Below, piece after piece: positions 4,824 to 58,075 of a stretch of DNA of 64,000 nucleotides; position 1 is the stretch's first letter, and each line of letters begins with the position of its first letter. Source of the DNA: Escherichia coli (GTDB taxonomy: Bacteria > Pseudomonadota > Gammaproteobacteria > Enterobacterales > Enterobacteriaceae); the NCBI RefSeq assembly GCF_029227855.1, contig NZ_CP074356.1; one strand, given 5' to 3'. The notes under the pieces were generated by a model. That model was not told the origin of the DNA. It saw nothing but the letters and a program-made list of their open reading frames with translations, and made no database searches. Position numbers and translations under genes: made by a program.

Positions 4824-5410
4824 GTGATGAACGCTACCAACAGCGTCAGCAGCGAGTGAAAGAAAAAGTCGATGCTCGTGTGGCCCAGGCCCAGGATGAA
4901 CGCGGTATTATCATCGTCTTTACCGGCAATGGAAAAGGCAAAACCACCGCGGCATTTGGTACGGCAACTCGTGCAGTAGGCCATGGCAAAAAAGTGGGTA
5001 TCGTGCAGTTTATTAAAGGCACCTGGCCTAATGGCGAGCGCAATCTACTGGAGCCACATGGCGTTGAGTTTCAGGTGATGGCAACGGGCTTTACCTGGGA
5101 TACACAAAATCGCGAATCTGATACCGCGGCCTGCCGTGAAGTCTGGCAACATGCCAAACGAATGCTGGCCGATCCTTCACTGGATATGGTTTTGCTCGAT
5201 GAGCTGACTTATATGGTGGCGTATGATTATTTGCCACTGGAAGAAGTGGTGAAGGCGTTAAATGAACGTCCACATCAGCAAACCGTCATTATTACGGGTC
5301 GTGGTTGTCATCGGGATATTCTTGAACTGGCGGATACGGTAAGTGAATTACGCCCAGTGAAACATGCGTTTGATGCCGGTGTTAAGGCGCAAATAGGGAT
5401 TGATTATTAA
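4820..5410 (+). CDS. btuR: cob(I)yrinic acid a,c-diamide adenosyltransferase
   Basis: 196 aa; P-loop-like GNGKGKTTAAFG; translationally coupled to yciK. Confidence 0.9.
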   Translation: MSDERYQQRQQRVKEKVDARVAQAQDERGIIIVFTGNGKGKTTAAFGTATRAVGHGKKVGIVQFIKGTWPNGERNLLEPHGVEFQVMATGFTWDTQNRESDTAACREVWQHAKRMLADPSLDMVLLDELTYMVAYDYLPLEEVVKALNERPHQQTVIITGRGCHRDILELADTVSELRPVKHAFDAGVKAQIGIDY

Positions 5411-5415
5411 GAGAA

Positions 5416-5446
5416 AGCACCTCAAAAGATCGCCTCTTGAGGTGCT
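5416..5446. terminator. inverted repeat between convergent btuR and islet operon
   Basis: Perfect 10 bp stem AGCACCTCAA/TTGAGGTGCT with 11 nt loop, flanked by A/T; lies between the btuR stop and the stop of the 102 aa minus-strand gene. Confidence 0.5.
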
Positions 5447-5462
5447 TTAATCATAATTATAT

Positions 5463-5771
5463 TCAAGCGGCAATAGCAAAACTCAGAATCCGTTTTATCT
5501 CATTCAAATGTCCCTGATATGCTTCATGATTCTCAGCGTCAACATCTTCAATAAATAATATCAGTTCAGTAATTAACGCATTAGCATCGTCATAATTTAT
5601 CCCGGCTAACTCTGGCGAAGTTTCAGTACCATAGTTTATCGTCAGGTTGTTCATAACTGTGAGGATATGGATAAAGTATTTATGACAAACATTGCATGTG
5701 GTTTTATTACCCAAAGTATTATACAGCATATCAAGTAATGCCAGTATTCTACGGTTTTGCACATCGTTCAT
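5463..5771 (-). CDS. hypothetical 102 aa protein, second gene of low-GC islet (acidic C-terminal half, CxxCH motif)
   Basis: ORF track 102 aa MNDVQNRRILALLDMLYNTLGNKTTCNVCHKYF...; strong SD (TAGGAGGT) 7-8 nt upstream of ATG at 5771; only 10 nt after the stop of the upstream lipoprotein gene; AT-rich codon usage unlike flanking genes. No homolog recognised from memory. Confidence 0.6.
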   Translation of the reverse strand: MNDVQNRRILALLDMLYNTLGNKTTCNVCHKYFIHILTVMNNLTINYGTETSPELAGINYDDANALITELILFIEDVDAENHEAYQGHLNEIKRILSFAIAA

Positions 5772-9961: not shown

Positions 9962-10582
9962 TTATAAGAAAGGCTTCACATCACCTACGCCTTCACGCAC
10001 CACGACCGGCGTATCATCGGTAAGATCAATAACCGTTGTTGGTTTCTGTCCGAGATAGCCGCCGTGGATAATCAAATCCACCTGTTTTTCCAGACGGTCT
10101 TTAATTTCTTCGGGATCGGATTCGGTAAATTCGCTGCCTGGCAGCATTAGCGAAGTGGAAAGCATCGGTTCGCCCAATGCTTCAAGCAACGCCTGCGCAA
10201 TCGGGTTAGAAGGCACACGCATACCGATGGTTTTGCGTTTTTCCTGCAACAGACGGCGTGGCACCTCCTTCGTCCCTTTCAGGATGAAGGTGTAGTTGCC
10301 CGGCGTGTTGTTTTTCATCAAACGAAACGCAACGTTATCCACGAATGAATAGGTCGAGAGCTCAGAAAGATCGCGACACATCAGGGTAAAGTTGTGACCG
10401 TCCGGCAGCTGGCGAATTCGACAAATACGCTCCATGGCGTTTTTATCTTCAATTTTACAGCCGAGCGCATAGCCGGAATCGGTTGGATAAACAATCACCC
10501 CGCCTTTACGCACGATCTCCACCGCCTGGTTGATCAGTCGTTGCTGCGGGTTATCAGGATGAATATAAAAAAACTGGCTCAT
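9962..10582 (-). CDS. yciO: L-threonylcarbamoyladenylate synthase-like protein YciO (YrdC/Sua5 fold)
   Basis: Start refined to internal Met (MSQFFYIHPDNPQQRL...) giving 206 aa; the ORF-track 218 aa version would overlap yciV by 40 bp. Confidence 0.85.
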   Translation of the reverse strand: MSQFFYIHPDNPQQRLINQAVEIVRKGGVIVYPTDSGYALGCKIEDKNAMERICRIRQLPDGHNFTLMCRDLSELSTYSFVDNVAFRLMKNNTPGNYTFILKGTKEVPRRLLQEKRKTIGMRVPSNPIAQALLEALGEPMLSTSLMLPGSEFTESDPEEIKDRLEKQVDLIIHGGYLGQKPTTVIDLTDDTPVVVREGVGDVKPFL

Positions 10583-20021: not shown

Positions 20022-20660
20022 TTAAAAACGATATCCTGCTGAGAACATAAACACCCACGGATCGAGGCGTACGCTATCGTGTTGCTGTGCACCGCCCAGC
20101 TTATAATTGGCGGTGGTATCAATATCCATGTACCACACTGACATGTTAACCAACCAGTCACGGTTAATCAGATAATCAACCCCCACCTGCCCGGCAGCTC
20201 CCCAGGAATCTTTCAGACTGAGATCGGAAAGCCCCGCCTCTTTGCCATGATCGTTAAATCCATTATCAAAGAAGGTGGTGTAGTTAATACCTGCCCCAAC
20301 GTAAGGACGGAATTTGCTGCTGGCATCACCAAAATACCACTGCGCCATCAGTGTTGGCGGCAGATGATGAACGGTTGCAATATCGCCGGTCGCCCGGGTG
20401 CCGATTTTATGGCGGAACGGCGTCGCTGCCAGCAATTCCACACCAATGTTATCGGTCGCCATATAAGTAAACGTCAGGCCCAGTTGCGTGTTATTGGTCA
20501 CGCTGAATCCACCCAGACTTCCTAACGTACCACCAGCACCTTCTGTTGGACGTACGGTTGCAGAACCTGCACGCATAAAAAATTCGCCTGCTTCATGCGC
20601 AAAGGCACTGCCAGAGAGAAGAGTTGTTACTGCCAAAGCCGCCACTGTTAACTTTTTCAT
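20022..20660 (-). CDS. ompW: outer membrane protein W
   Basis: 212 aa; signal peptide MKKLTVAALAVTTLLSGSAFA; beta-barrel ending in Phe (..AGYRF). Confidence 0.92.
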   Translation of the reverse strand: MKKLTVAALAVTTLLSGSAFAHEAGEFFMRAGSATVRPTEGAGGTLGSLGGFSVTNNTQLGLTFTYMATDNIGVELLAATPFRHKIGTRATGDIATVHHLPPTLMAQWYFGDASSKFRPYVGAGINYTTFFDNGFNDHGKEAGLSDLSLKDSWGAAGQVGVDYLINRDWLVNMSVWYMDIDTTANYKLGGAQQHDSVRLDPWVFMFSAGYRF

Positions 20661-20808
20661 ATCCGCTCCGTCGTTATGGTTATAAAAACGTGACGAATAT
20701 ACCTACATTGGAGTAACAAATGATCCTACATAGATCACATTACATATGATAATTCACCCTTTATTGATCTGGATTAATTTAGAAGTTGCATTGAGAATCC
20801 TGGTTAAC

Positions 20809-20822
20809 GTGATTTAAATCAA
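20809..20822. promoter_or_regulatory. candidate FNR/CRP-type site upstream of ompW
   Basis: GTGATttaaATCAA matches TTGAT-N4-ATCAA at 9 of 10 positions; about 150 bp upstream of the ompW start; ompW is known to be FNR-regulated. Confidence 0.4.
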
Positions 20823-34884: not shown

Positions 34885-35360
34885 GGTTAGCTCCGAAGCA
34901 AAAGCCGGATAATGTTAGCCATAAATAAGGTTGAAAAGACGCGCTGACAATACGCCTTTTGACAGCATTTTTCACCTCCTAACTACTTAAAATTGCTATC
35001 ATTCGTTATTGTTATCTGGTTGTGCAAAACATGCTAATGTAGCCACCAAATCATACTACAATTTATTAACTGTTAGCTATAATGGCGAAAAGCGATGCTG
35101 AAAGGTGTCAGCTTTGCAAAAATTTGATTTGGATCACGTAATCAGTACCCAGAAGTGAGTAATCTTGCTTACGCCACCTGGAAGTGACGCATTAGAGATA
35201 ATAACTCTAATGTTTAAACTCTTTTAGTAAATCACAGTGAGTGTGAGCGCGAGTAAGCTTTTGATTTTCATCGGTTAAGCAAATCATCACCGCACTGACT
35301 ATACTCTCGTATTCGAGCAGATGATTTACTAAAAAAGTTTAACATTATCAGGAGAGCATT

Positions 35361-40062: not shown

Positions 40063-40774
40063 AATAAATATCCTCCGGCATAGCCGGAGGTTTTTCAAAT
40101 GCGCCTATAAGGCTCTCTTACCAGCCGCGCCCTAACAGGCGCACACGATCTGACATTTGCATCCAACTTCGTTACTTACGGCCCGTAAACGGGCTGCCCG
40201 GATAGGGAATCGATAACTGCTCTCCCATTTTATCCTCTTCAAGCTGGTGCTTTATGTAATCCTGTATCTTCGCCGTGTTCTTACCCACCGTATCGACGTA
40301 GTACCCTCTGCACCAGAACTCCCTGTTCCTGTATTTGAATTTCAAATCACCAAACTGCTCGTAAAGCATCAGACTGCTTTTCCCTTTCAGATATCCCATA
40401 AAGCCGGATACGCTCATTTTGGGCGGGATCTCCACAAGCATATGGATATGATCTGCACAGCATTCAGCTTCCAGAATCCGTACACTTTTCCACTCACACA
40501 GCTTTCTCAAAATACTGCCTATTGCTCTACGCTTCTCTCTGTAGAACACCTGTCTTCGGTATTTTGGCGCAAAAACTATGTGATATTTACAGTTCCATCG
40601 GGTGTGCGCTAAGCTCTTTTCGTTCCCCATTGGGACCCCCTTTTGATTTCTTGTTTGACACTTGCAGTTGCCAGACCGCAAGGTGTTTTAACAAATCAAA
40701 AGGGGTTTTAATAACTGGCTTAAAGCTGAAAGCTTTCCGGAACCCCCAGCCTAGCTGGGGGTTTTCTGTGCACA
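40063..40774 (-). mobile_element. IS200 copy 1 (IS200/IS605 family), head-to-tail with copy 2
   Basis: About 712 bp unit with tnpA (HuH/Y1 transposase) and subterminal palindromes (CCTCCGGCATAGCCGGAGG at one end; CCCCCAGCCTAGCTGGGGG at the tnpA-proximal end). Boundaries are ambiguous by 1-3 nt. Confidence 0.85.
40172..40630 (-). CDS. tnpA: IS200 transposase TnpA (152 aa)
   Basis: Start refined to MGNEKSLAHTRWNCKYHIVFAPKYRR...; HxH motif (ADHIHMLVEIPP) and catalytic Tyr region (YIKHQ). Confidence 0.88.
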   Translation of the reverse strand: MGNEKSLAHTRWNCKYHIVFAPKYRRQVFYREKRRAIGSILRKLCEWKSVRILEAECCADHIHMLVEIPPKMSVSGFMGYLKGKSSLMLYEQFGDLKFKYRNREFWCRGYYVDTVGKNTAKIQDYIKHQLEEDKMGEQLSIPYPGSPFTGRK

Positions 40775-41487
40775 AATAAATATCCTCCGGCATAGCCGGA
40801 GGTTTTTCAAATGCGCCTATAAGGCTCTCTTACCAGCCGCGCCCTAACAGGCGCACACGATCTGACATTTGCATCCAACTTCGTTACTTACGGCCCGTAA
40901 ACGGGCTGCCCGGATAGGGAATCGATAACTGCTCTCCCATTTTATCCTCTTCAAGCTGGTGCTTTATGTAATCCTGTATCTTCGCCGTGTTCTTACCCAC
41001 TGTATCGACGTAGTACCCTCTGCACCAGAACTCCCTGTTCCTGTATTTGAATTTCAAATCACCAAACTGCTCGTAAAGCATCAGACTGCTTTTCCCTTTC
41101 AGATATCCCATAAACCCGGATACGCTCATTTTGGGCGGGATCTCCACAAGCATATGGATATGATCTGCACAGCATTCAGCTTCCAGAATCCGTACGCTTT
41201 TCCACTCACACAGCTTTCTCAAAATACTGCCTATTGCTCTACGCTTCTCTCTGTAGAACACCTGTCTTCGGTATTTTGGCGCAAAAACTATGTGATATTT
41301 ACAGTTCCATCGGGTGTGCGCTAAGCTCTTTTCGTTCCCCATTGGGACCCCCTTTTGATTTCTTGTTTGACACTTGCAGTTGCCAGACCGCAAAGTGTTT
41401 TAACAAATCAAAAGGGGTTTTAATAACTGGCTCAAAGCTGAAAGCTTTCCGGAACCCCCAGCCTAGCTGGGGGTTTTCTGTGCACAA
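40775..41487 (-). mobile_element. IS200 copy 2, directly abutting copy 1
   Basis: Second unit, same orientation, no spacer; differs from copy 1 at a handful of positions; ends at the A-run of the galU terminator. Confidence 0.85.
40884..41342 (-). CDS. tnpA: IS200 transposase TnpA (152 aa), copy 2
   Basis: Protein identical to copy 1 in the ORF track although the DNA differs at a few sites. Confidence 0.88.
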   Translation of the reverse strand: MGNEKSLAHTRWNCKYHIVFAPKYRRQVFYREKRRAIGSILRKLCEWKSVRILEAECCADHIHMLVEIPPKMSVSGFMGYLKGKSSLMLYEQFGDLKFKYRNREFWCRGYYVDTVGKNTAKIQDYIKHQLEEDKMGEQLSIPYPGSPFTGRK

Positions 41488-41516
41488 AAAAACGGCGTCG
41501 ATTGCTCAACGCCGTT
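41484..41516 (-). terminator. galU terminator
   Basis: On the minus strand AACGGCG..CGCCGTT hairpin followed by TTTTTTTT, just after the galU stop. Confidence 0.8.
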
Positions 41517-45281: not shown

Positions 45282-46124
45282 ATGCATTCACTCCAACGTA
45301 AAGTTCTGCGTACTATTTGTCCGGACCAAAAAGGTCTGATCGCACGTATTACCAATATTTGCTACAAGCACGAGTTAAATATCGTACAGAACAATGAATT
45401 TGTTGATCACCGTACCGGGCGCTTTTTTATGCGCACGGAACTGGAAGGGATTTTTAATGATTCCACCCTGCTGGCGGATCTCGATAGCGCATTGCCAGAA
45501 GGCTCCGTGCGTGAGCTGAATCCTGCCGGTCGTCGCCGGATAGTGATTCTGGTCACTAAAGAAGCGCATTGCCTTGGCGATTTGTTGATGAAAGCCAATT
45601 ACGGCGGCCTGGATGTCGAAATCGCGGCAGTTATTGGTAACCACGATACTTTACGTTCTCTGGTTGAGCGTTTTGATATTCCGTTTGAGCTGGTAAGTCA
45701 TGAAGGATTAAGCCGCAACGAGCACGATCAAAAGATGGCGGATGCCATTGATGCTTATCAGCCTGACTACGTGGTGCTGGCGAAGTATATGCGGGTATTA
45801 ACGCCAGAATTTGTGGCACGCTTCCCGAATAAGATCATCAATATTCACCATTCATTCCTGCCAGCGTTTATCGGCGCACGTCCTTATCACCAGGCCTATG
45901 AACGTGGCGTGAAGATTATTGGCGCAACCGCTCACTATGTGAATGACAATCTGGACGAAGGTCCAATCATCATGCAGGACGTTATTCATGTCGATCATAC
46001 CTACACAGCTGAAGATATGATGCGCGCAGGTCGTGACGTCGAGAAAAACGTCTTAAGTCGCGCACTCTACAAAGTACTGGCGCAGCGCGTCTTTGTTTAC
46101 GGTAATCGGACGATTATTCTTTAA
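45282..46124 (+). CDS. purU: formyltetrahydrofolate deformylase
   Basis: 280 aa; N-terminal ACT domain and formyltransferase core. Confidence 0.92.
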   Translation: MHSLQRKVLRTICPDQKGLIARITNICYKHELNIVQNNEFVDHRTGRFFMRTELEGIFNDSTLLADLDSALPEGSVRELNPAGRRRIVILVTKEAHCLGDLLMKANYGGLDVEIAAVIGNHDTLRSLVERFDIPFELVSHEGLSRNEHDQKMADAIDAYQPDYVVLAKYMRVLTPEFVARFPNKIINIHHSFLPAFIGARPYHQAYERGVKIIGATAHYVNDNLDEGPIIMQDVIHVDHTYTAEDMMRAGRDVEKNVLSRALYKVLAQRVFVYGNRTIIL

Positions 46125-48237: not shown

Positions 48238-49772
48238 GGGTGCGACTCCGTTTTGCTCGTTACGTCGATGGCATCGATACGGCGGCTGTTGAACAGATTG
48301 AATTTGGTATCTGAACCGTGGCAGCCATCACCAAAGGTAAAGCCGCAGCCATTTTTCTCCGGGAAGGCTTCCCGCGCCAGTTCACGATGACTGCTCGGCA
48401 CCACAAAGCGATCTTCGTAGTTAGCAATCGCCAGATAACGGTACATCTCCTGTGCCTGGGCTTCGGTCAGACCGACCTCTTCCAGCGCACGGGTATCGAC
48501 TTTACCGTCAACGGTTTCAGCACGTTTGTAATGACGCATCGCCAGCATACGTTTCAGCGCGCGCAGTACTGGTTTGGTATCACCGGCGGTCAGCAGATTC
48601 GCCAGATACTGTACCGGAATACGCAGACTTTCGACGTCTGGCAGAATGCCGTTGCTGCCCAGTTCACCCGCATCTGCCGCAGACTGAATCGGCGACAGAG
48701 GCGGCACGTACCAGACCATCGGCAGTGTGCGATATTCCGGATGCAGCGGCAGCGCCAGTTTCCATTCCATCGCCATTTTATAAACCGGCGACTGCTGTGC
48801 GGCTTCAATAACGCTCAGCGGAATACCGTCTTTAATTGCCTGCTCGATGACTTTCGGATCGTTCGGATCGAGGAACACCTCCAGCTGACGCTGGTAGAGA
48901 TCTTTCTCGTTCTCGGTGCTGGCTGCACGTTCAATGGCGTCGGCATCGTACAGCAGCACGCCGAGATAACGGATACGACCGACACAGGTTTCAGAGCACA
49001 CCGTCGGCTGACCGGCTTCAATACGCGGATAGCAGAAGATGCACTTCTCAGACTTACCGCTCTTCCAGTTGAAGTAGATTTTTTTGTACGGGCATCCGGT
49101 GATGCACATACGCCAGCCACGGCATTTATCCTGGTCGATCAGGACGATGCCATCTTCTTCACGCTTGTAAATCGCACCGCTCGGGCAGGTCGCCACACAT
49201 GCCGGGTTCAGGCAGTGTTCGCACAGGCGCGGCAAATACATCATGAAGGTGTTTTCGAACTGGCTATACATCGCCTTCTGGATGTTGTCGAAGTTCTTGT
49301 CTTTCGCCAGCTTGTCAAACTCACCGCCCAGGTCATCTTCCCAGTTCGGCCCTTTTTCGATTTTCGCCATCCGTTCGCCGGTAATCAGCGAACGCGGACG
49401 GGCAATCGGCTGCGATTTGCTGCCTTCCGGCGCGGTATGCAGGTTCTGATAATCAAAATCGAACGGCTCGTAATAATCGTCGATACCCGGCAGATGCGGG
49501 TTAGCAAAGATTTTACCCAGCAGCATGGCGCGGTTACCCATGCGCGGCTGCAGTTTGCCGTTGATTTTACGGATCCAGCCGCCTTTGTATTTTTCCTGGT
49601 TTTCCCAGTCAGTCGGGAAGCCCTGGCCCGGCTTGGTTTCCACGTTGTTGAACCACGCGTATTCCACACCTTCGCGGCTGGTCCAGACGTTTTTACAGGT
49701 AACTGAACAGGTGTGGCAGCCGATGCACTTATCGAGATTCAGCACCATGCCGACTTGTGAACGAATTTTCAT
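48234..49772 (-). CDS. narH: respiratory nitrate reductase beta subunit (Fe-S)
   Basis: 512 aa; ferredoxin-type Cys clusters (CIGCHTCSVTC, CEHCLNPACVATCP). Confidence 0.95.
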   Translation of the reverse strand: MKIRSQVGMVLNLDKCIGCHTCSVTCKNVWTSREGVEYAWFNNVETKPGQGFPTDWENQEKYKGGWIRKINGKLQPRMGNRAMLLGKIFANPHLPGIDDYYEPFDFDYQNLHTAPEGSKSQPIARPRSLITGERMAKIEKGPNWEDDLGGEFDKLAKDKNFDNIQKAMYSQFENTFMMYLPRLCEHCLNPACVATCPSGAIYKREEDGIVLIDQDKCRGWRMCITGCPYKKIYFNWKSGKSEKCIFCYPRIEAGQPTVCSETCVGRIRYLGVLLYDADAIERAASTENEKDLYQRQLEVFLDPNDPKVIEQAIKDGIPLSVIEAAQQSPVYKMAMEWKLALPLHPEYRTLPMVWYVPPLSPIQSAADAGELGSNGILPDVESLRIPVQYLANLLTAGDTKPVLRALKRMLAMRHYKRAETVDGKVDTRALEEVGLTEAQAQEMYRYLAIANYEDRFVVPSSHRELAREAFPEKNGCGFTFGDGCHGSDTKFNLFNSRRIDAIDVTSKTESHP

Positions 49773-52700
49773 TTTACGCTCTCCTGTACCTGGTCATTGC
49801 CTTCGCCATCTAACCAGTCAATGTTCTTCATCTTACGCACTACAACAAACTCATCGCGGTTAGAACCTACGGTGCCGTAGTAGTTAAAGCCGTATGCCAG
49901 ATGGGCATAGCCGCCGATCATATGCGTCGGTTTCGGCGTGATACGGGTGACCGAGTTATGGATACCACCACGCTGTTGGGTAATTTCCGAACCAGGCAGG
50001 TTAACGATACGTTCCTGCGCGTGGTACATCATGGTCATCCCTGCCGGAACACGCTGGCTGACAACCGCACGGGCAGTCAGAGCACCGTTGCTGTTGAAGA
50101 CTTCAATCCAGTCGTTATCGGCGATACCCAGCTCTTTGGCATCGGCTTCACTCAGCCAGACCACCGGACCACCGCGACCTAAAGTCAGCATCAGCAGGTT
50201 GTCGCTGTAGGTGGAGTGGATACCCCACTTCTGGTGCGGCGTCAGGAAGTTGAGCGCTTTTTCCGGGTTGCCATTGGATTTCTGGCCCATCACTTCTTTC
50301 ACCGAACGGGTGTCGATCGGCGGACGATAAACCAGCAGGCTTTCACCGAAATCACGCATCCATTGGTGATCCTGATACAGTTGCTGACGGCCAGAGAGCG
50401 TACGCCACGGGATCAGCTCGTGAATGTTGGTGTAACCGGCGTTGTAAGAAACGTGTTCATCTTCAAGGCCAGACCAGGTTGGGCTGGAGATGATTTTGCG
50501 CGGCTGTGCCTGAATATCGCGGAAGCGAATCTTCTCGTCTTCTTTATTCAGCGCCAGATGCGTATGGTCACGACCGGTAAACTCGCTCAGGGCAGCCCAG
50601 GCTTTCACGGCTACCTGACCGTTGGTTTCCGGTGCCAGCGTCAGGATCATCTCTGCCGCATCAATGGCGGTGTTCAGCATCGGCTGGCCTTTTGCCGGAC
50701 CTTCCGCTTTGGTGTAGTTGAGCTTACGCAGCAGATCCATCTCGCTCTGGGTGTTCCAGGCAATCCCTTTACCGCCGTTACCGATTTTCTCCATCAACGG
50801 GCCGATAGAGGTAAAGCGTTCGTAAGTTGCCGGATAATCGCGCTCTACGACCATAATGTGCGGTGCAGTTTTACCTGGGATCAGGTCGCATTCGCCTTTT
50901 TTCCAGTCTTTCACATCCAGCGGTTGCGCCAGTTCAGCGGCAGAGTCGTGCTGGATAGGCAGCGTGACGATGTCGGTTTCTTTACCCAGGTGGCCGACGC
51001 ACACTTCGGAGAATTTCTTCGCGATGGCTTTGTAGATTTCCCAGTCGCTTTTCGCTTCCCAGGCCGGATCGACCGCCGCAGACAGCGGGTGAATAAACGG
51101 ATGCATATCCGAAGTATTCATGTCGTCTTTTTCGTACCAGGTCGCCGTCGGCAAAATGATGTCGGAATAGAGACAGGTGCTCGACAGACGGAAGTCCAGC
51201 GTAACCACCAGATCCAGCTTGCCTTCCAGACCATTGTCCTGCCAGTCCACTTCTTCCGGCTTCACGCCGCCCTGCTGCCCCAGATCTTTACCCTGGATAC
51301 CGTGCTCCGTCCCCAGCAGGTACTTGAGCATAAACTCATGACCTTTACCGGAAGAACCGAGCAGGTTAGAACGCCAGATGAACAGGTTGCGCGGGTGGTT
51401 TTTACCGTTTTCCGGCTGTTCCGCAGCGAAACGGATAGAACCCTCTTTCAGGGATTTCACCGTATAGTCCACCGGATTCATCCCGGCTTTTTCTGCTTCG
51501 CGAGCGATAGTCAGCGGGTTAGTGCCTAACTGCGGCGCAGACGGCAGCCAGCCCATGCGTTCTGCACGGACGTTAAAGTCGATCAAGTGTCCGGTATAGC
51601 GAGATTTATCCGCCATCGGCGACAGCAGTTCTGCCGCAGTCACGGTTTCATAACGCCACTGGCTGGAGTGGTTATAGAAATAAGAGGTACTGTTCATGTG
51701 ACGCGCCGGACGCTGCCAGTCGAGGGCAAACGCCAGCGGCTGCCAGCCGGTTTGCGGACGCAGTTTTTCCTGACCTACATAGTGCGCCCAGCCCCCCCCG
51801 CTCTGACCGACACAGCCGCAGAAAATCAGCATGTTGATCAGACCACGATAGTTCATATCGAGGTGATACCAGTGGTTCAGCCCCGCACCGACGATAATCA
51901 TCGAACGACCGTGCGTCTTGTCAGCGTTATCGGCAAATTCACGGGCAATACGGATAATCTGGCTACGAGAAACGCCAGTGATTTGCTCGGCCCAGGCAGG
52001 GGTGTAAGCTTTCACGTCGTCATAGCTGGTTGCACAATTAACGTCGTTCAGGCCACGTTCCAGACCGTAGTTTGCCAGCGTCAGATCATAAACGGTGGTC
52101 ACCAGGGCGGTGCTGCCATCAGCCAGTTGCAAGCGTTTCACCGGCAGCTTGTGCAGCAGCACGTTTTCCAGTTCCACTTTGTTGAAGTGTTCCGTGCCGT
52201 CGCCACCAAAGTACGGGAAGCCCACCTCAGCGATCTCATCCTGGCTACCCAGCAGGCTCAGTTGCAGCTCGGTTTCTTCGCCAGTTTTGCCGTCGCGCTG
52301 TTCAAGATTCCATTTGCCCTTCTCGCCCCAGCGGAAGCCGATAGAACCGTTCGGCGCAACCATTTCGCCATTGGTATTAAAGGCGACAGTTTTCCATTCC
52401 GGATTGTTTTCCTGGCCCAGCGCATCCACCAGATCAGCAGCGCGCAGCATACGACCCGCAGCGTAGTAACCGTCGCGTTCTTCCAGCATCACCAGCATCG
52501 GCATGTCGGTGTAGCGACGCACATAGTCGGTGAAATACTGGCTTGGGTTGTCGAGGTGGAATTCACGCAGCATTACGTGGCCCATCGCCAGCGCCATTGC
52601 TGCGTCGGTGCCCTGTTTCGGTGCCAGCCACAGATCGCACAGTTTGGCGATTTCAGCGTAGTCCGGTGTGACGGCAACAGTTTTGGTGCCTTTGTAACGC

Positions 52701-53512
52701 ACTTCAGTAAAGAAGTGAGCATCCGGGGTACGCGTCTGCGGCACGTTTGAACCCCAGGCGATGATGTAGCTGGAGTTGTACCAGTCAGCAGATTCCGGTA
52801 CGTCAGTCTGCTCGCCCCAGGTTTGCGGAGATGCAGGAGGCAGGTCGCAGTACCAGTCGTAGAAGCTTAAGCAAGTACCGCCAAGCAGCGAGAGATAGCG
52901 CGCGCCGGAAGCGTAAGAAACCATCGACATTGCCGGAATTGGCGAGAAGCCAGCGACGCGGTCCGGGCCGTAGTTTTTGATGGTGTAAACGTTAGAGGCG
53001 GCGATCATTTCATTCACTTCCTGCCAGGAAGAACGAACAAAACCACCGCGTCCACGCGCCTGCTTAAAGCTTTTCGCTTTATCGGCGTCTTCAATGATAG
53101 AAGCCCATGCCTCAACCGGATCGCTATGCAGCGCCTTCGCTTCACGCCACATTTTCATCAGGCGTTTGCGCATCATCGGGTATTTCAGACGGTTGGCGCT
53201 GTAAAGATACCAGGAGTAGCTGGCACCACGCGGGCAGCCGCGAGGTTCATGGTTTGGCAGGTCCGGGCGAGTACGCGGATAGTCAGTCTGCTGGGTTTCC
53301 CAGGTCACCAGACCGTTTTTAACGTAGATTTTCCAGCTGCAGGAGCCGGTGCAGTTTACCCCGTGGGTAGAGCGGACGATTTTGTCATGCTGCCAACGCT
53401 GGCGATATCCATCCTCCCAGTCACGGTTGGTATTGAGAAGCTGGCCATGCCCATCGGCAAAGGTTTCACCCTTCTGTTTGAAGTAGCGAAACCGGTCCAG
53501 GAATTTACTCAT
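49769..53512 (-). CDS. narG: respiratory nitrate reductase alpha subunit (Mo-bisMGD)
   Basis: 1247 aa MSKFLDRFRYFKQKGETFADGHGQLL... Confidence 0.96.
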   Translation of the reverse strand: MSKFLDRFRYFKQKGETFADGHGQLLNTNRDWEDGYRQRWQHDKIVRSTHGVNCTGSCSWKIYVKNGLVTWETQQTDYPRTRPDLPNHEPRGCPRGASYSWYLYSANRLKYPMMRKRLMKMWREAKALHSDPVEAWASIIEDADKAKSFKQARGRGGFVRSSWQEVNEMIAASNVYTIKNYGPDRVAGFSPIPAMSMVSYASGARYLSLLGGTCLSFYDWYCDLPPASPQTWGEQTDVPESADWYNSSYIIAWGSNVPQTRTPDAHFFTEVRYKGTKTVAVTPDYAEIAKLCDLWLAPKQGTDAAMALAMGHVMLREFHLDNPSQYFTDYVRRYTDMPMLVMLEERDGYYAAGRMLRAADLVDALGQENNPEWKTVAFNTNGEMVAPNGSIGFRWGEKGKWNLEQRDGKTGEETELQLSLLGSQDEIAEVGFPYFGGDGTEHFNKVELENVLLHKLPVKRLQLADGSTALVTTVYDLTLANYGLERGLNDVNCATSYDDVKAYTPAWAEQITGVSRSQIIRIAREFADNADKTHGRSMIIVGAGLNHWYHLDMNYRGLINMLIFCGCVGQSGGGWAHYVGQEKLRPQTGWQPLAFALDWQRPARHMNSTSYFYNHSSQWRYETVTAAELLSPMADKSRYTGHLIDFNVRAERMGWLPSAPQLGTNPLTIAREAEKAGMNPVDYTVKSLKEGSIRFAAEQPENGKNHPRNLFIWRSNLLGSSGKGHEFMLKYLLGTEHGIQGKDLGQQGGVKPEEVDWQDNGLEGKLDLVVTLDFRLSSTCLYSDIILPTATWYEKDDMNTSDMHPFIHPLSAAVDPAWEAKSDWEIYKAIAKKFSEVCVGHLGKETDIVTLPIQHDSAAELAQPLDVKDWKKGECDLIPGKTAPHIMVVERDYPATYERFTSIGPLMEKIGNGGKGIAWNTQSEMDLLRKLNYTKAEGPAKGQPMLNTAIDAAEMILTLAPETNGQVAVKAWAALSEFTGRDHTHLALNKEDEKIRFRDIQAQPRKIISSPTWSGLEDEHVSYNAGYTNIHELIPWRTLSGRQQLYQDHQWMRDFGESLLVYRPPIDTRSVKEVMGQKSNGNPEKALNFLTPHQKWGIHSTYSDNLLMLTLGRGGPVVWLSEADAKELGIADNDWIEVFNSNGALTARAVVSQRVPAGMTMMYHAQERIVNLPGSEITQQRGGIHNSVTRITPKPTHMIGGYAHLAYGFNYYGTVGSNRDEFVVVRKMKNIDWLDGEGNDQVQESVK

Positions 53513-53603
53513 CGGTTTTCTCCTGTGGGAGCCTGTCGGCCCTCTGATAAATCGACATTGCTAATGTTTAAGGGCAAGGTAACGCTCTGAAACAGCGTGG
53601 GAA

Positions 53604-53617
53604 TTGATAACGATCAA
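53604..53617. promoter_or_regulatory. FNR site of narG promoter
   Basis: TTGATaacgATCAA, perfect match to TTGAT-N4-ATCAA, about 90-105 bp upstream of the narG ATG; TACCCCT NarL-type heptamer at 53655-53661. Confidence 0.8.
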
Positions 53618-53856
53618 GAGTGATGGGGATGAAAAATAAAGTAAATTCCTAAGATACCCCTTTAGGATAATTAACAGCCACAACATAACAGACTGTAAAT
53701 TAAGACGTTTTATACCTGTAGTTATTTAAACTATTAAGATTTTTATGCAGATGGGTATTAAGGAGTATTCCCCATGGGTAACATATTAATGGCTCTTAAT
53801 GAAATCCGGCGAAATAAGCCACTCACACATGAGTATGTTGTAACTAAACGACAGAT

Positions 53857-53882
53857 AAAAAAAGCGCGACATCATGCCGCGC
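53857..53882 (-). terminator. narK terminator
   Basis: On the minus strand GCGCGGCATGATGTCGCGC hairpin followed by TTTTTTT, about 25-50 nt after the narK stop. Confidence 0.75.
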
Positions 53883-53905
53883 AAAGGATAATCAAATATT
53901 AAGAT

Positions 53906-55297
53906 TTATTTTTTAGAATGCCGACCATATACCGCCCAAGTAATCACTACACAGGCGATATAGAAAATCAAAAATACTTTCATTGCGCCGACTGGCGAAC
54001 CCGTTAATGCCAGCGAGCTACCGAACGCTTTCGGGATAAAGAAGCCACCAATCGCGCCAATCGCAGAGATGAAACCCAGCGCCGCCGCCGTGTCGGTTGC
54101 TGCTTCACGCATCGCACGTTCGTCAGAACCCCCTTCTGCTTTCACGCGATCCATTGTCAGTTTACGGAAGATCACGGAAATCATCTGGAAAGTGGAACCA
54201 CTACCCAGCCCAGCTGTCAGGAACAGCGCCAGGAAGACTGCGAAGAACGCCATGAAGCTTCCGCCCTGTCCGTCAGTCGGTAAGGTCAGGAACAGCAGGC
54301 CGCTGAAAATTGCCATCAGAATAAAGTTCACCAGCGTGACACGAGTTCCGCCAAGACGGTCAGATAATGCACCACCTGCAGAACGCGCCAGCGCACCAAT
54401 AAACGGCCCGAAGAAAGCGTATTGCAGAATCTGAACATCCGGGAACTGCGTTTTTGACAGCATCGCAAAGCCCGCGGAGAAGCCGATGAAGGAGCCGAAG
54501 GTTGCCAGATACAGCAGGCTCATAATCCACAGATGACCCCGTTTGAGTACCGGCAACTGCTCCTTGATGGAGGCTTTCGAGGTAGCAAGATCGTTCATGC
54601 CAAACCACGCCGCAATGGTGAAGATGGCAAGGAACGGCACCCATACCCAGGACGCATTCGCCAGATACAGCTCAGTCCCATCCGGCTGTTTGACACCCTG
54701 GCTACCAAATACTGCGAAAATCGACAGTGATACCACCAGCGGAGCAACCAACTGCATGACGCTGACGCCCATGTTGCCCAGACCACCATTCAGACCCAGC
54801 GCGCCACCCTGCTTCTGTTTCGGAAAGAAGAAGCTGATGTTTGCCATACTGGAAGCGAAGTTCGCGCCAGCAAAGCCGCACAGTAGAGAGATGATGATGA
54901 AGACGCTATAAGGCGTGGAGGTATCCTGCACGGCAAAACCCAGCCAGACGCAAGGAATAATCAGAATACCGGTGCTGAACGCCGTCCAGCGACGACCACC
55001 GAAGATAGGAACCATAAAGGAGTATGGAACACGTAATAACGCGCCAGAAACCGAAGGCAGCGCAGTCAACATAAATAGCTGATCGGTCGTAAAATTAAAA
55101 CCGACTTTCGGTAAGTTCACCGCAACAGCGCTGAACAACATCCATACGCAAAACGCCAGCAGCAGACAGGGAACGGAAATCCACAGGTTGCGGCTGGCAA
55201 TACGTTGACCGCGTTGTTGCCAGAACGCAGGATCTTCCGGTCGCCAATCTGTAATGACAGCTCCAGTAGCCCTTTCGGGGGCGGATGAGTGACTCAT
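53906..55297 (-). CDS. narK: nitrate/nitrite antiporter (MFS)
   Basis: Start taken at second Met (MSHSSAPERATGAVITDWRPEDPAFW..., 463 aa); the ORF-track start is 2 codons upstream. Confidence 0.93.
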   Translation of the reverse strand: MSHSSAPERATGAVITDWRPEDPAFWQQRGQRIASRNLWISVPCLLLAFCVWMLFSAVAVNLPKVGFNFTTDQLFMLTALPSVSGALLRVPYSFMVPIFGGRRWTAFSTGILIIPCVWLGFAVQDTSTPYSVFIIISLLCGFAGANFASSMANISFFFPKQKQGGALGLNGGLGNMGVSVMQLVAPLVVSLSIFAVFGSQGVKQPDGTELYLANASWVWVPFLAIFTIAAWFGMNDLATSKASIKEQLPVLKRGHLWIMSLLYLATFGSFIGFSAGFAMLSKTQFPDVQILQYAFFGPFIGALARSAGGALSDRLGGTRVTLVNFILMAIFSGLLFLTLPTDGQGGSFMAFFAVFLALFLTAGLGSGSTFQMISVIFRKLTMDRVKAEGGSDERAMREAATDTAAALGFISAIGAIGGFFIPKAFGSSLALTGSPVGAMKVFLIFYIACVVITWAVYGRHSKK

Positions 55298-55356
55298 AGA
55301 CACCTCTGATACTCGTTTCGATGTCTGCCACCTTAGTGTCTGTAGCTAAAGGCAAT

Positions 55357-55370
55357 TTGATGTAAATCAA
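55357..55370. promoter_or_regulatory. FNR site of narK promoter
   Basis: TTGATgtaaATCAA, perfect consensus, about 60-70 bp upstream of the narK start; TACCCAT heptamer at 55409-55415. Confidence 0.8.
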
Positions 55371-55635
55371 ACGATAAGATAACTTTATCTATCATTGATA
55401 TTTATCATTACCCATAGTGAGTACAGTGATTTCATAAAAATTATGAGATTTTTCACGGTGCTGTAAAATCCCTACCCTTACCGATGTAAAGCGACTAACC
55501 ACGCGGCAAATAAGGAGTAACTCTTTCCGGGTATGGGTATACTTCAGCCAATAGCCGAGAATACTGCCATTCCAGAATGTATCGCCACATTCATTAAGGT
55601 TATTGCTCATTTAAAGCCTGAAGGAAGAGGTTTAC

Positions 55636-57432
55636 ATGCTTAAACGTTGTCTCTCTCCGCTCACCCTGGTTAATCAGGTTGCGCTTATTGTGTTGCTTTC
55701 TACTGCTATTGGACTGGCAGGGATGGCAGTTTCTGGCTGGCTAGTGCAAGGCGTTCAGGGCAGCGCCCATGCGATCAACAAAGCGGGATCGCTGCGCATG
55801 CAAAGTTACCGTCTGTTGGCGGCAGTGCCATTAAGCGAGAAAGACAAGTCCTTAATTAAAGAGATGGAACAAACAGCATTTAGCGCCGAATTAACCCGAG
55901 CAGCAGAACGAGACGGACAACTGGCGCAATTACAGGGTTTACAAGATTACTGGCGTAATGAACTGATCCCTGCGCTGATGCGTGCACAAAACCGCGAAAC
56001 GGTGTCAGCGGATGTCAGCCAGTTTGTTGCCGGGCTTGATCAGCTGGTATCTGGTTTTGACCGCACCACGGAAATGCGTATTGAGACAGTGGTGCTGGTC
56101 CATCGGGTAATGGCGGTATTTATGGCACTTTTACTGGTGTTCACTATTATCTGGTTGCGGGCGCGATTGCTACAACCGTGGCGGCAACTGCTGGCAATGG
56201 CGAGTGCCGTCAGCCATCGCGATTTTACCCAACGCGCGAACATCAGCGGGCGCAACGAAATGGCGATGCTTGGAACTGCGTTGAACAATATGTCTGCAGA
56301 ACTGGCCGAAAGTTATGCCATACTTGAGCAGCGGGTTCAGGAGAAAACCGCCGGGCTGGAGCATAAAAATCAGATCCTCTCTTTTTTATGGCAGGCCAAC
56401 CGCCGATTGCATTCCCGCGCCCCGCTGTGTGAACGCCTGTCACCTGTACTCAACGGCTTACAGAATTTGACCCTGCTACGTGATATTGAACTGCGGGTGT
56501 ATGACACTGATGATGAAGAGAATCATCAGGAGTTTACCTGCCAGCCAGATATGACTTGTGATGATAAAGGCTGCCAGCTCTGCCCGCGCGGCGTATTACC
56601 CGTTGGCGATCGCGGCACAACCCTGAAGTGGCGGCTGGCTGACTCTCATACGCAGTACGGTATTTTGCTGGCGACCCTGCCGCAGGGGCGTCATCTTAGC
56701 CATGATCAACAACAACTGGTGGATACCCTGGTTGAACAACTCACCGCCACGCTGGCGTTGGATCGCCATCAGGAACGTCAGCAACAGTTGATCGTGATGG
56801 AAGAGCGTGCCACCATTGCGCGCGAACTGCATGATTCTATTGCCCAATCTCTCTCTTGCATGAAGATGCAGGTGAGTTGTTTACAGATGCAGGGCGATGC
56901 GCTGCCAGAAAGCAGTCGCGAACTGTTAAGTCAGATCCGTAACGAACTGAATGCATCCTGGGCGCAGTTGCGTGAATTGCTCACCACATTCCGTTTGCAG
57001 CTCACCGAGCCTGGATTACGTCCGGCGCTGGAGGCGAGTTGCGAAGAGTACAGCGCCAAATTTGGCTTCCCGGTGAAGCTGAATTATCAATTGCCGCCTC
57101 GTCTGGTGCCTTCGCATCAGGCAATCCACTTGTTGCAAATTGCCCGTGAGGCATTAAGTAACGCCCTCAAACATTCGCAAGCGAGTGAAGTCGTGGTGAC
57201 GGTGGCGCAAAACGATAATCAGGTCAAACTGACCGTCCAGGATAACGGCTGCGGCGTGCCTGAAAATGCCATCCGCAGCAATCACTACGGCATGATAATA
57301 ATGCGCGACCGTGCGCAAAGTTTACGAGGCGATTGCCGCGTCCGCCGTCGTGAATCAGGTGGCACCGAAGTGGTGGTCACCTTTATTCCCGAAAAAACTT
57401 TCACAGACGTCCAAGGAGATACCCATGAGTAA
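55636..57432 (+). CDS. narX: nitrate/nitrite sensor histidine kinase
   Basis: 598 aa; periplasmic P-box region, HAMP, H-box ([11 protein letters not shown]), ATPase domain; 3' end overlaps narL by 8 nt. Confidence 0.95.
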
Positions 57433-58075
57433 TCAGGAACCGGCTACTATCCTGCTGATCGACGATCACCCGATGCTGCGAACTGGCGTAAAACAGCTTA
57501 TCAGTATGGCACCAGATATCACCGTGGTTGGCGAAGCGAGTAATGGCGAACAGGGTATTGAACTGGCGGAATCTCTTGATCCCGATTTGATCCTGTTAGA
57601 TCTCAATATGCCCGGCATGAACGGTCTGGAAACGCTGGATAAACTGCGCGAAAAGTCCCTCTCCGGGCGCATTGTGGTATTCAGCGTTTCTAACCATGAA
57701 GAAGATGTGGTCACCGCACTGAAACGCGGCGCGGATGGCTATCTGTTAAAAGATATGGAACCGGAAGATCTGCTGAAAGCGTTACATCAGGCAGCTGCTG
57801 GCGAAATGGTATTAAGCGAAGCATTAACGCCTGTTCTGGCCGCCAGCTTGCGTGCTAACCGTGCCACTACTGAGCGCGATGTTAACCAGTTAACCCCACG
57901 CGAGCGCGATATTCTCAAGCTGATTGCCCAGGGTTTGCCGAACAAGATGATTGCCCGCCGCCTGGACATCACCGAAAGCACAGTAAAAGTGCACGTCAAG
58001 CACATGCTGAAGAAAATGAAGCTCAAGTCTCGCGTGGAAGCAGCGGTATGGGTGCATCAGGAGCGCATTTTCTGA
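57425..58075 (+). CDS. narL: nitrate/nitrite response regulator
   Basis: Start refined to [22 protein letters not shown] (216 aa); LuxR-type HTH C-terminus. Confidence 0.95.

Follow-up and report, generated by a model that had tools for sequence, protein, structure and literature searches.

Perfect-consensus FNR sites and NarL heptamers upstream of narG and narK in an Escherichia coli chromosome segment

Introduction

Do the FNR-type palindromes in front of narG and narK in this E. coli chromosome belong to anaerobic, nitrate-responsive control regions of the kind mapped in K-12, and are those regions intact? We address this question in a 64-kb stretch of DNA (the window, by which we mean the whole stretch analyzed), a part of the E. 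coli chromosome that extends from topA to kdsA. The list of open reading frames, together with an annotated E. coli record that is 100% identical, puts narGHJI and narK on the minus strand; narXL is encoded on the plus strand. The narG gene occupies 49769-53512 (minus strand), and narK, which encodes a nitrate/nitrite antiporter of 463 amino acids, occupies 53906-55297 (minus strand). The narX-narL pair (55636-58075, plus strand) consists of the nitrate sensor kinase gene narX (55636-57432) and the gene for the response regulator that acts with it on NarL heptamers, narL (57425-58075); ychO follows downstream of narL on the minus strand. The fnr gene is located outside the window.

The two palindromes fall in separate intergenic regions. 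The 393-bp spacer between narK and narG, upstream of narG, holds the first, and the 338-bp divergent spacer between narK and narX holds the second. The span 53604-55370 is made up of two 14-bp sites with the whole of narK between them and is not a single feature. Colinearity of the window with the 100%-matching genome of JNEC-KY178 was considered and rejected: there, an Stx2e prophage sits beside ompW, whereas the window carries an ordinary topA-trp-ompW core.

Two perfect FNR palindromes

The exact TTGAT-N4-ATCAA palindromes that an earlier note on this DNA had described in both nar promoters are borne out by the letters and by a pattern search. The narG site lies at 53604-53617 (minus strand, centre 53610.5) and reads TTGATAACGATCAA on the plus strand and TTGATCGTTATCAA on the narG strand. 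The narK site lies at 55357-55370 (minus strand, centre 55363.5) and reads TTGATGTAAATCAA on the plus strand and TTGATTTACATCAA on the narK strand. Both match 10 of the 10 specified bases of the consensus. Candidate FNR sites were scored by mismatch counts with shuffle controls; a perfect core is the maximum under any matrix with the consensus TTGATNNNNATCAA.

These two sites are the only perfect TTGATNNNNATCAA matches in the 64-kb window. The expectation from 100 dinucleotide-preserving shuffles of the window is 0.11, and two or more perfect sites were reached in 0 of the 100. When up to one mismatch is allowed, the window contains 8 sites against 2.96 expected, a count that was likewise reached by no shuffle. 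One of the six extra matches, TTGATATTTATCAT, lies 38 bp upstream of the narK FNR site. This second FNR-like site of narK (55395-55408, minus strand, centred at -79.5) has one mismatch and is identical in K-12; it is presumably an element that has been described before.

A pattern with 10 specified bases does arise by chance in large genomes, and one-mismatch matches are expected about three times per 64 kb. The two palindromes could thus be chance matches without a regulatory role. Against this stand the excess of perfect sites over the shuffled expectation, the location of both palindromes at class II distance from their genes, and their identity with sites that have published FNR ChIP peaks. 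We therefore consider a chance origin extremely improbable, and the cross-species data given below point the same way.

Promoter architecture and transcription starts

A comparison with the mapped K-12 sites, which the earlier note had put forward as a check, gives a clear result: each of the palindromes is a known FNR site of K-12, and the sequence from each site to its ATG is identical to that of MG1655. FNR ChIP peaks have been reported at narGHJI and narK in K-12, with each site at -41.5 (Myers et al. 2013, Table 1). Because the K-12 sequence from site to ATG is unchanged and the K-12 sites lie at -41.5, transcription starts are implied at 53569 for narG (minus strand; a 5' UTR of 57 nt to the ATG at 53512) and at 55322 for narK (minus strand; 25 nt to the ATG at 55297). 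Setting the narG start in this way puts NarL heptamers exactly at the published footprint positions of -89 and -195, and the start is therefore cross-checked to the base. Given identity with K-12 and these starts, both promoters have the class II spacing of about 41.5 bp between site centre and start.

Both promoters also have a recognizable -10 element without a usable -35. The narG -10 hexamer is TACCTT (53576-53581, minus strand, -12 to -7), with TAnnnT kept across genera, and the narK hexamer is TAAGGT (55330-55335, minus strand, -13 to -8), with CtaA.gt kept across genera. A sigma-70 consensus scan of 53450-55700 called neither the narG nor the narK promoter. This is expected because these are activator-dependent class II promoters that lack a usable -35, and the outcome is uninformative as support. 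Within the same interval, the scan flags TTTACA-16-CATAAT (narK strand, 55467-55440).

CRP and FNR sites share the same 5-4-5 core geometry within related 22-bp sites, and single-base changes in a half-site can switch specificity between the two proteins. On these grounds, the palindromes could be bound mainly by another member of the CRP/FNR family, such as CRP itself, rather than by FNR. However, the half-sites in both promoters are TTGAT and not the GTGA of CRP, expression of NarS and narK in Salmonella requires FNR, and published ChIP and genetics assign the sites to FNR (Myers et al. 2013). We give almost no credence to binding mainly by a relative of FNR.

The arrangement at narG and narK resembles that of other class II promoters under FNR and NarL, namely dmsA, nirB, and nrfA, which combine an FNR palindrome near -41.5 with NarL heptamers. 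The FNR sites of all three are at -41.5, and NarL represses dmsA (Myers et al. 2013). The nar promoters differ from these three in their heptamers, which are scattered far upstream as single or directly repeated copies and do not form a 7-2-7 inverted pair.

NarL heptamers in both spacers

The two NarL-type heptamers singled out in the earlier note, TACCCCT at 53655 and TACCCAT at 55409, are present where it had placed them, and both turn out to be recorded NarL sites. Both read this way on the plus strand, which makes them inverted with respect to the genes, which are on the minus strand. In the narG spacer, TACCCCT (53655-53661, plus strand) is centred at -89 and is a high-affinity NarL site. 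Farther upstream, the principal nitrate-response cluster of narG, on the minus strand (53751-53780), comprises TACCCAT at -208 (53774-53780), TACTCCT at -195 (53761-53767), and TACCCAT at -185 (53751-53757). The TACYYMT scan adds a fifth heptamer in this spacer, which is centred at -263 when numbered from the inferred start.

At narK, the proximal heptamers (55409-55423, minus strand) are ATGGGTA at -90 (55409-55415; TACCCAT on the plus strand) and TACTCAC at -98 (55417-55423). Together they form a converging pair, TACTCAC-T-ATGGGTA, with a spacer of 1 bp. The distal heptamers (55513-55539, minus strand) are TACTCCT at -194 (55513-55519) and TACCCAT at -214 (55533-55539). The TACYYMT pattern is matched at -89, -185, -195, and -208 of narG and at -90, -194, and -214 of narK.

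TACYYMT is enriched in both spacers. The 64-kb window contains 49 matches on both strands, or about 0.77 per kb. The 393-bp spacer holds 5 of them against 0.57 expected (fraction of mononucleotide shuffles reaching 5, 0.00015), and the 338-bp spacer holds 3 against 0.46 expected (fraction of mononucleotide shuffles reaching 3, 0.011).

Published records place phosphorylated NarL at these same positions. NarL-P footprints cover regions at -89 and -195 of K-12 narG, and the -89 sequence is printed as TACCCCT (PMC4549865). The MotifAdjuster supplementary tables, which carry over database entries based on the footprints of Li, Kustu, and Stewart 1994, list AGGGGTA/TACCCCT, TACTCCT, and TACCCAT as NarL sites of narG (b1224). 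For narK (b1223), the same tables list ATGGGTA/TACCCAT, TACTCAC, TACTCCT, and TACCCAT (Li, Kustu, and Stewart 1994). Taking the published regions, the site lists, and the identity with K-12 together, NarL-P-footprinted regions coincide with the heptamers found here.

Neither promoter contains a 7-2-7 inverted pair. At narG, the heptamers at -185, -195, and -208 point in the same direction and the inverted one at -89 has no nearby partner, in agreement with the description of narG as lacking 7-2-7 sites (PMC4549865). At narK, the proximal heptamers are separated by 1 bp and do not make such a pair. The narG and narK heptamers are NarL sites of the non-7-2-7 kind.

A plus-strand open reading frame of 42 amino acids (53774-53902) was rejected as a gene. 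Its Shine-Dalgarno-like motif, AAGGAG, is simply the TACTCCT heptamer read on the opposite strand, and in K-12 the same frame is shortened to 22 amino acids by an indel.

Conservation within E. coli and across genera

Among 5426 complete E. coli genomes, 5414 contain a 60-bp segment spanning the narG site at 98% identity or more (4271 records identical, the other 1145 at 95-99%). For narK, 5415 of the 5426 carry, again at 98% identity or more, an 87-bp segment that takes in the -90 heptamer along with the two FNR-like sites; 3548 records are identical. Variants that we sampled fall at 53619 (narG -50, in two genomes), 55342 (narK -20), and 55411, the last of which changes TACCCAT to TATCCAT in strain NR341. 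The FNR cores are unchanged in all four variant genomes, two per site, in what is a sample and not a census.

For comparison across species, we used one genome per species and a degenerate pattern for the NarG N-terminus, MSKFLDRFRYFK, which returned at least 120 loci. Among the matches listed, 116 narG loci had at least 160 bp of upstream sequence, and 61 narK loci had an upstream region that could be counted. A perfect FNR site lies within 250 bp of narG in 86 of the 116 loci listed, and a further 7 have a site with one mismatch. The centre of the site is mostly 93 to 103 bp before the ATG in Enterobacteriaceae, among the matches listed. At narK, again among the matches listed, a perfect site is found about 65 to 71 bp before the ATG in 48 of 61 loci. 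Another 11 show a single mismatch, and the last 2 lack a qualifying site.

The remaining 23 of the 116 narG loci listed have two or more mismatches at best, and in 19 of these 23, narK ends 130 bp or less upstream. Among the matches listed, loci with narK this close come from Morganellaceae (Proteus, Providencia, and Moellerella), from several Pantoea, and from Yersinia. The abutment of narK and narG suggests that the two genes may be fused into a single narK-narG operon in such taxa. Taxa of this kind are included in the narK counts and, among the matches listed, those with readable sequence upstream of narK mostly carry an FNR-like site there.

Conservation extends beyond the palindromes. 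We stacked the sequences of the different species on the FNR site without gaps, separately for narG and narK. Among the matches listed, the narG stack keeps TTGATCGttATCAATT, a TAcctT -10, GGTA near -90, and taCCCCttaAtaCC from about -200 to -185 across genera. The narK stack, over the matches listed, keeps TTGATTTatATCAA, a CtaA.gt -10, and cTaCtca.taagggt from about -100 to -86; its distal part keeps tacccataCC and ttacccctt from about -215 to -190. Since the -10 and heptamer regions are kept as well, the whole architecture is conserved and not the palindromes alone. Both position and sequence are thus retained across species among the matches listed, as is characteristic of functional cis-elements. 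In dozens of genera among the matches listed, the palindromes are perfect and keep their distance from the gene, which further argues against their being chance matches. The comparison illustrates that selection across Enterobacterales keeps the FNR sites of narG and narK at perfect consensus.

The second FNR-like site of narK is distributed differently. Among the matches listed, the 14-mer at -79.5 has at most one mismatch in 2 of 59 loci and three or more in the other 57; viewed locus by locus among the same matches, the site appears in E. albertii and E. coli.

Comparison with K-12 and its regulators

Both spacers were aligned to K-12 MG1655 as the reference. The narGHJI promoter is identical to that of K-12 from the ATG to about -255 except at -113, so that the two strains share the FNR site, the -10 region, and the heptamers at -89, -185, -195, and -208. 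The exception, at 53682, is a C in K-12 and an A in the window on the plus strand (G to T on the narG strand). Upstream of about -255, the window diverges from K-12, which carries a 123-bp insert directly after the narK stop codon that the window lacks. At the narK promoter, the FNR site, the FNR-like site at -79.5, and all listed NarL heptamers are identical to those of K-12. The narK-narX spacer has three substitutions, at narK -108, -181, and -263, and the one at -181 adjoins GTGGTTA. All four substitutions relative to K-12 lie outside the FNR sites and the listed heptamers.

The regulators encoded in the window are also close to those of K-12. NarL is identical at 216 of 216 residues, and NarX (598 amino acids) differs by P72S, V229I, and D483N. 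Intact narX and narL genes supply the complete NarX-NarL two-component pair. The transporter NarK differs by a single residue, I218V. The claim of the earlier note that the regulatory architecture is intact, as expected for anaerobic nitrate control, therefore holds: the sites and NarL are identical to those of K-12, and NarX and NarK nearly so.

It could be argued that the sites are intact while regulation nevertheless differs from K-12 through changes outside them, such as the loss of the insert with its TACTTTA heptamer, the substitution at narG -113, the NarX substitutions, or a different fnr allele. The insert, which is ERIC-like and contains a NarL heptamer listed in databases, is indeed absent from the window; the substitution at 53682 lies near the region bent by IHF; and NarX carries P72S, V229I, and D483N. 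Yet absence of the insert is the majority state: 2457 of 5416 complete E. coli genomes carry it and about 55% do not; O157:H7 and ABU 83972 also lack it, and E. albertii has a short spacer as well. In the published footprinting of narG, the DNA fragment reached only to -236 and did not include the insert position (PMC4549865). Furthermore, among the matches listed, narG -113 shows no strong conservation between genera, and no substitution touches a listed site. A regulatory difference of this kind is thus very unlikely.

The sites are almost certainly the canonical, K-12-type control regions of the narGHJI operon and of narK. Published K-12 work supplies the FNR occupancy, the placement of the sites at -41.5, and the footprints of NarL, and from the match in sequence we infer that transcription starts and regulation in the window strain would equal those of K-12. 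Without oxygen, an FNR dimer would bind each perfect palindrome, the centre of which lies 41.5 bp before the start. As the FNR site overlaps the -35 position, RNA polymerase would be activated through class II contacts. In the presence of nitrate, NarX would phosphorylate NarL, and phospho-NarL would then fill the TACYYMT heptamers. At narG, NarL would occupy -89 and the region around -195, with IHF bending the DNA between them, and at narK it would occupy about -90/-98 and -194/-214; in both cases, it would be expected to raise FNR-dependent transcription.

Nothing in the sequence runs contrary to this canonical reading beyond the absent TACTTTA heptamer. The strain appears to carry the standard anaerobic and nitrate switch for respiratory nitrate reductase and the nitrate transporter, and nothing suggests that this control has decayed. 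What we describe here is already known biology on an ordinary E. coli chromosome and is of little consequence except for the quality of annotation.

An ERIC-like insert in the narK 3' UTR

The presence or absence of the ERIC-like insert is the only element at this locus that is not textbook. The K-12 insert contains CACCCCAGTCACTTACTTTAGTAAGCTCCTGGGATTCA, and we take it to be an ERIC/IRU repeat. It also contains the listed narG NarL heptamer TACTTTA (context TCACTTACTTTAGTAAG), and this heptamer is missing from the window because the insert is absent. An ERIC-like element occurs at the same place in five Citrobacter loci, representing several species, in the opposite orientation. This difference in orientation suggests that the E. 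coli and Citrobacter elements may have been inserted independently.

The insert falls within the RNA annotated as NarS in MG1655. An insertion near the narK stop codon has been described in E. coli K-12, where NarS is longer as a result (Wang et al., NarS paper), and the 123-bp insert corresponds to that insertion. In the window, the narK 3' UTR occupies 53857-53905 (minus strand), and a terminator scan finds an intrinsic terminator in it, with a stem at 53882-53864 followed by a T-run. From AATATTTGATTATCC through the terminator hairpin and T-run, this 3' UTR is identical in the window and in K-12. The interval 53857-53905 corresponds, minus the ERIC-like insert, to the region that the K-12 annotation assigns to the small RNA NarS. 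A search of 53400-55700 against Rfam returned no match to a NarS family; a sub-threshold match to the L20 leader in the same interval was rejected as driven by the terminator.

In Salmonella, the narK 3' UTR gives rise to the small RNA NarS of about 63 nt, and expression of narK and NarS depends on both FNR and NarL (Wang et al., NarS paper). The window strain likewise has a short 3' UTR that ends in a terminator. ERIC-less strains might make a short NarS of roughly the Salmonella size, about 63 nt, instead of the longer K-12 form, which could change the level of NarS and the repression of nirC, although we consider this improbable. If true, it would mean a strain-level difference in nitrate/nitrite homeostasis, in strains from which one distal NarL heptamer is missing as well. 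For researchers working on NarS, the ERIC-like polymorphism of the narK 3' UTR is a minor lead.

Elements upstream of narK

A second FNR-like site lies upstream of narK. This site, TTGATATTTATCAT (55395-55408), carries one mismatch and is centered at -79.5; the principal FNR site of narK is 38 bp downstream of it. The same sequence is present in K-12. Across species, a site at this position with one mismatch or fewer is found at only 2 of 59 loci, and in the per-locus listing it is visible in E. albertii and E. coli loci.

The NarL heptamer at -90 of narK is polymorphic within E. coli, since strain NR341 (L128) reads TATCCAT (a change at window position 55411) rather than the consensus form TACCCAT, which the window carries. 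Further upstream, a sigma-70-like element, TTTACA-16-CATAAT (10 of 12 matches), is located on the minus (narK) strand at 55440-55467, and the inferred start of narK transcription is approximately 120-145 bp downstream of it. It sits inside a gTGAaaaacca block that is kept across genera. The element may serve to bind a protein or to bend the DNA, or it may act as a secondary promoter.

The narK-narG junction

In several other taxa, narK directly abuts narG. In Morganellaceae, several Pantoea, and Yersinia, only 58-130 bp separate the end of narK from narG (loci including L021, L027, L042, L053, L059, L063, L067, L068, and L083, among others). No FNR-like site of narG's own was detected in these loci; instead, those with a readable narK upstream region have an FNR site upstream of narK that is perfect or has a single mismatch, except L090, where none was found. 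The presence of an FNR site before narK and its absence before narG suggests that narK and narGHJI form a single operon in these taxa.

The narK-narG interval also differs between the window and K-12. Immediately 3' of the K-12 narK stop codon is a 123-bp ERIC-like insert (5352-5474 of the K-12 locus, L001), located within the sRNA annotated as NarS. This insert is missing from the window, where the junction is at 53900-53906; it is present in 2,457 of 5,416 E. coli genomes. Five Citrobacter loci (L005, L049, L052, L071, and L095) have an ERIC-like element at the same position as that of K-12, in reversed orientation. TACTTTA, a NarL heptamer listed in databases for narG, is located within the K-12 insert.

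A 42-amino-acid ORF lies antisense to the narK terminator (53774-53902, plus strand), and its AAGGAG motif is the complement of a TACTCCT NarL heptamer. In K-12 this ORF is shortened to only 22 amino acids, so we rejected it as a gene candidate: it very probably does not represent a gene.

FNR-like sites and structural differences elsewhere in the window

Other FNR-like sites with one mismatch each are distributed across the window. Two of these, 45 bp apart (20764-20777 and 20809-20822), are upstream of ompW (20022-20660, minus strand), for which an FNR ChIP peak has been published in K-12. The remaining sites are in the ychE/ychT-adhE intergenic region (TTGATTTGGATCAC, 35124-35137), within purU (45748-45761), and in the trp-side core region (10308-10321).

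The strain closest to the window in the nar region among database entries, JNEC-KY178, has an Stx2e-encoding prophage adjoining ompW, whereas the window has no prophage next to ompW (at ~20020), where the ordinary topA-trp core continues. Between hns and galU, the window contains a tandem duplication of ~715 bp (40063-41492), which corresponds to two IS200C transposase copies according to the annotation of the near-identical JNEC-KY178.
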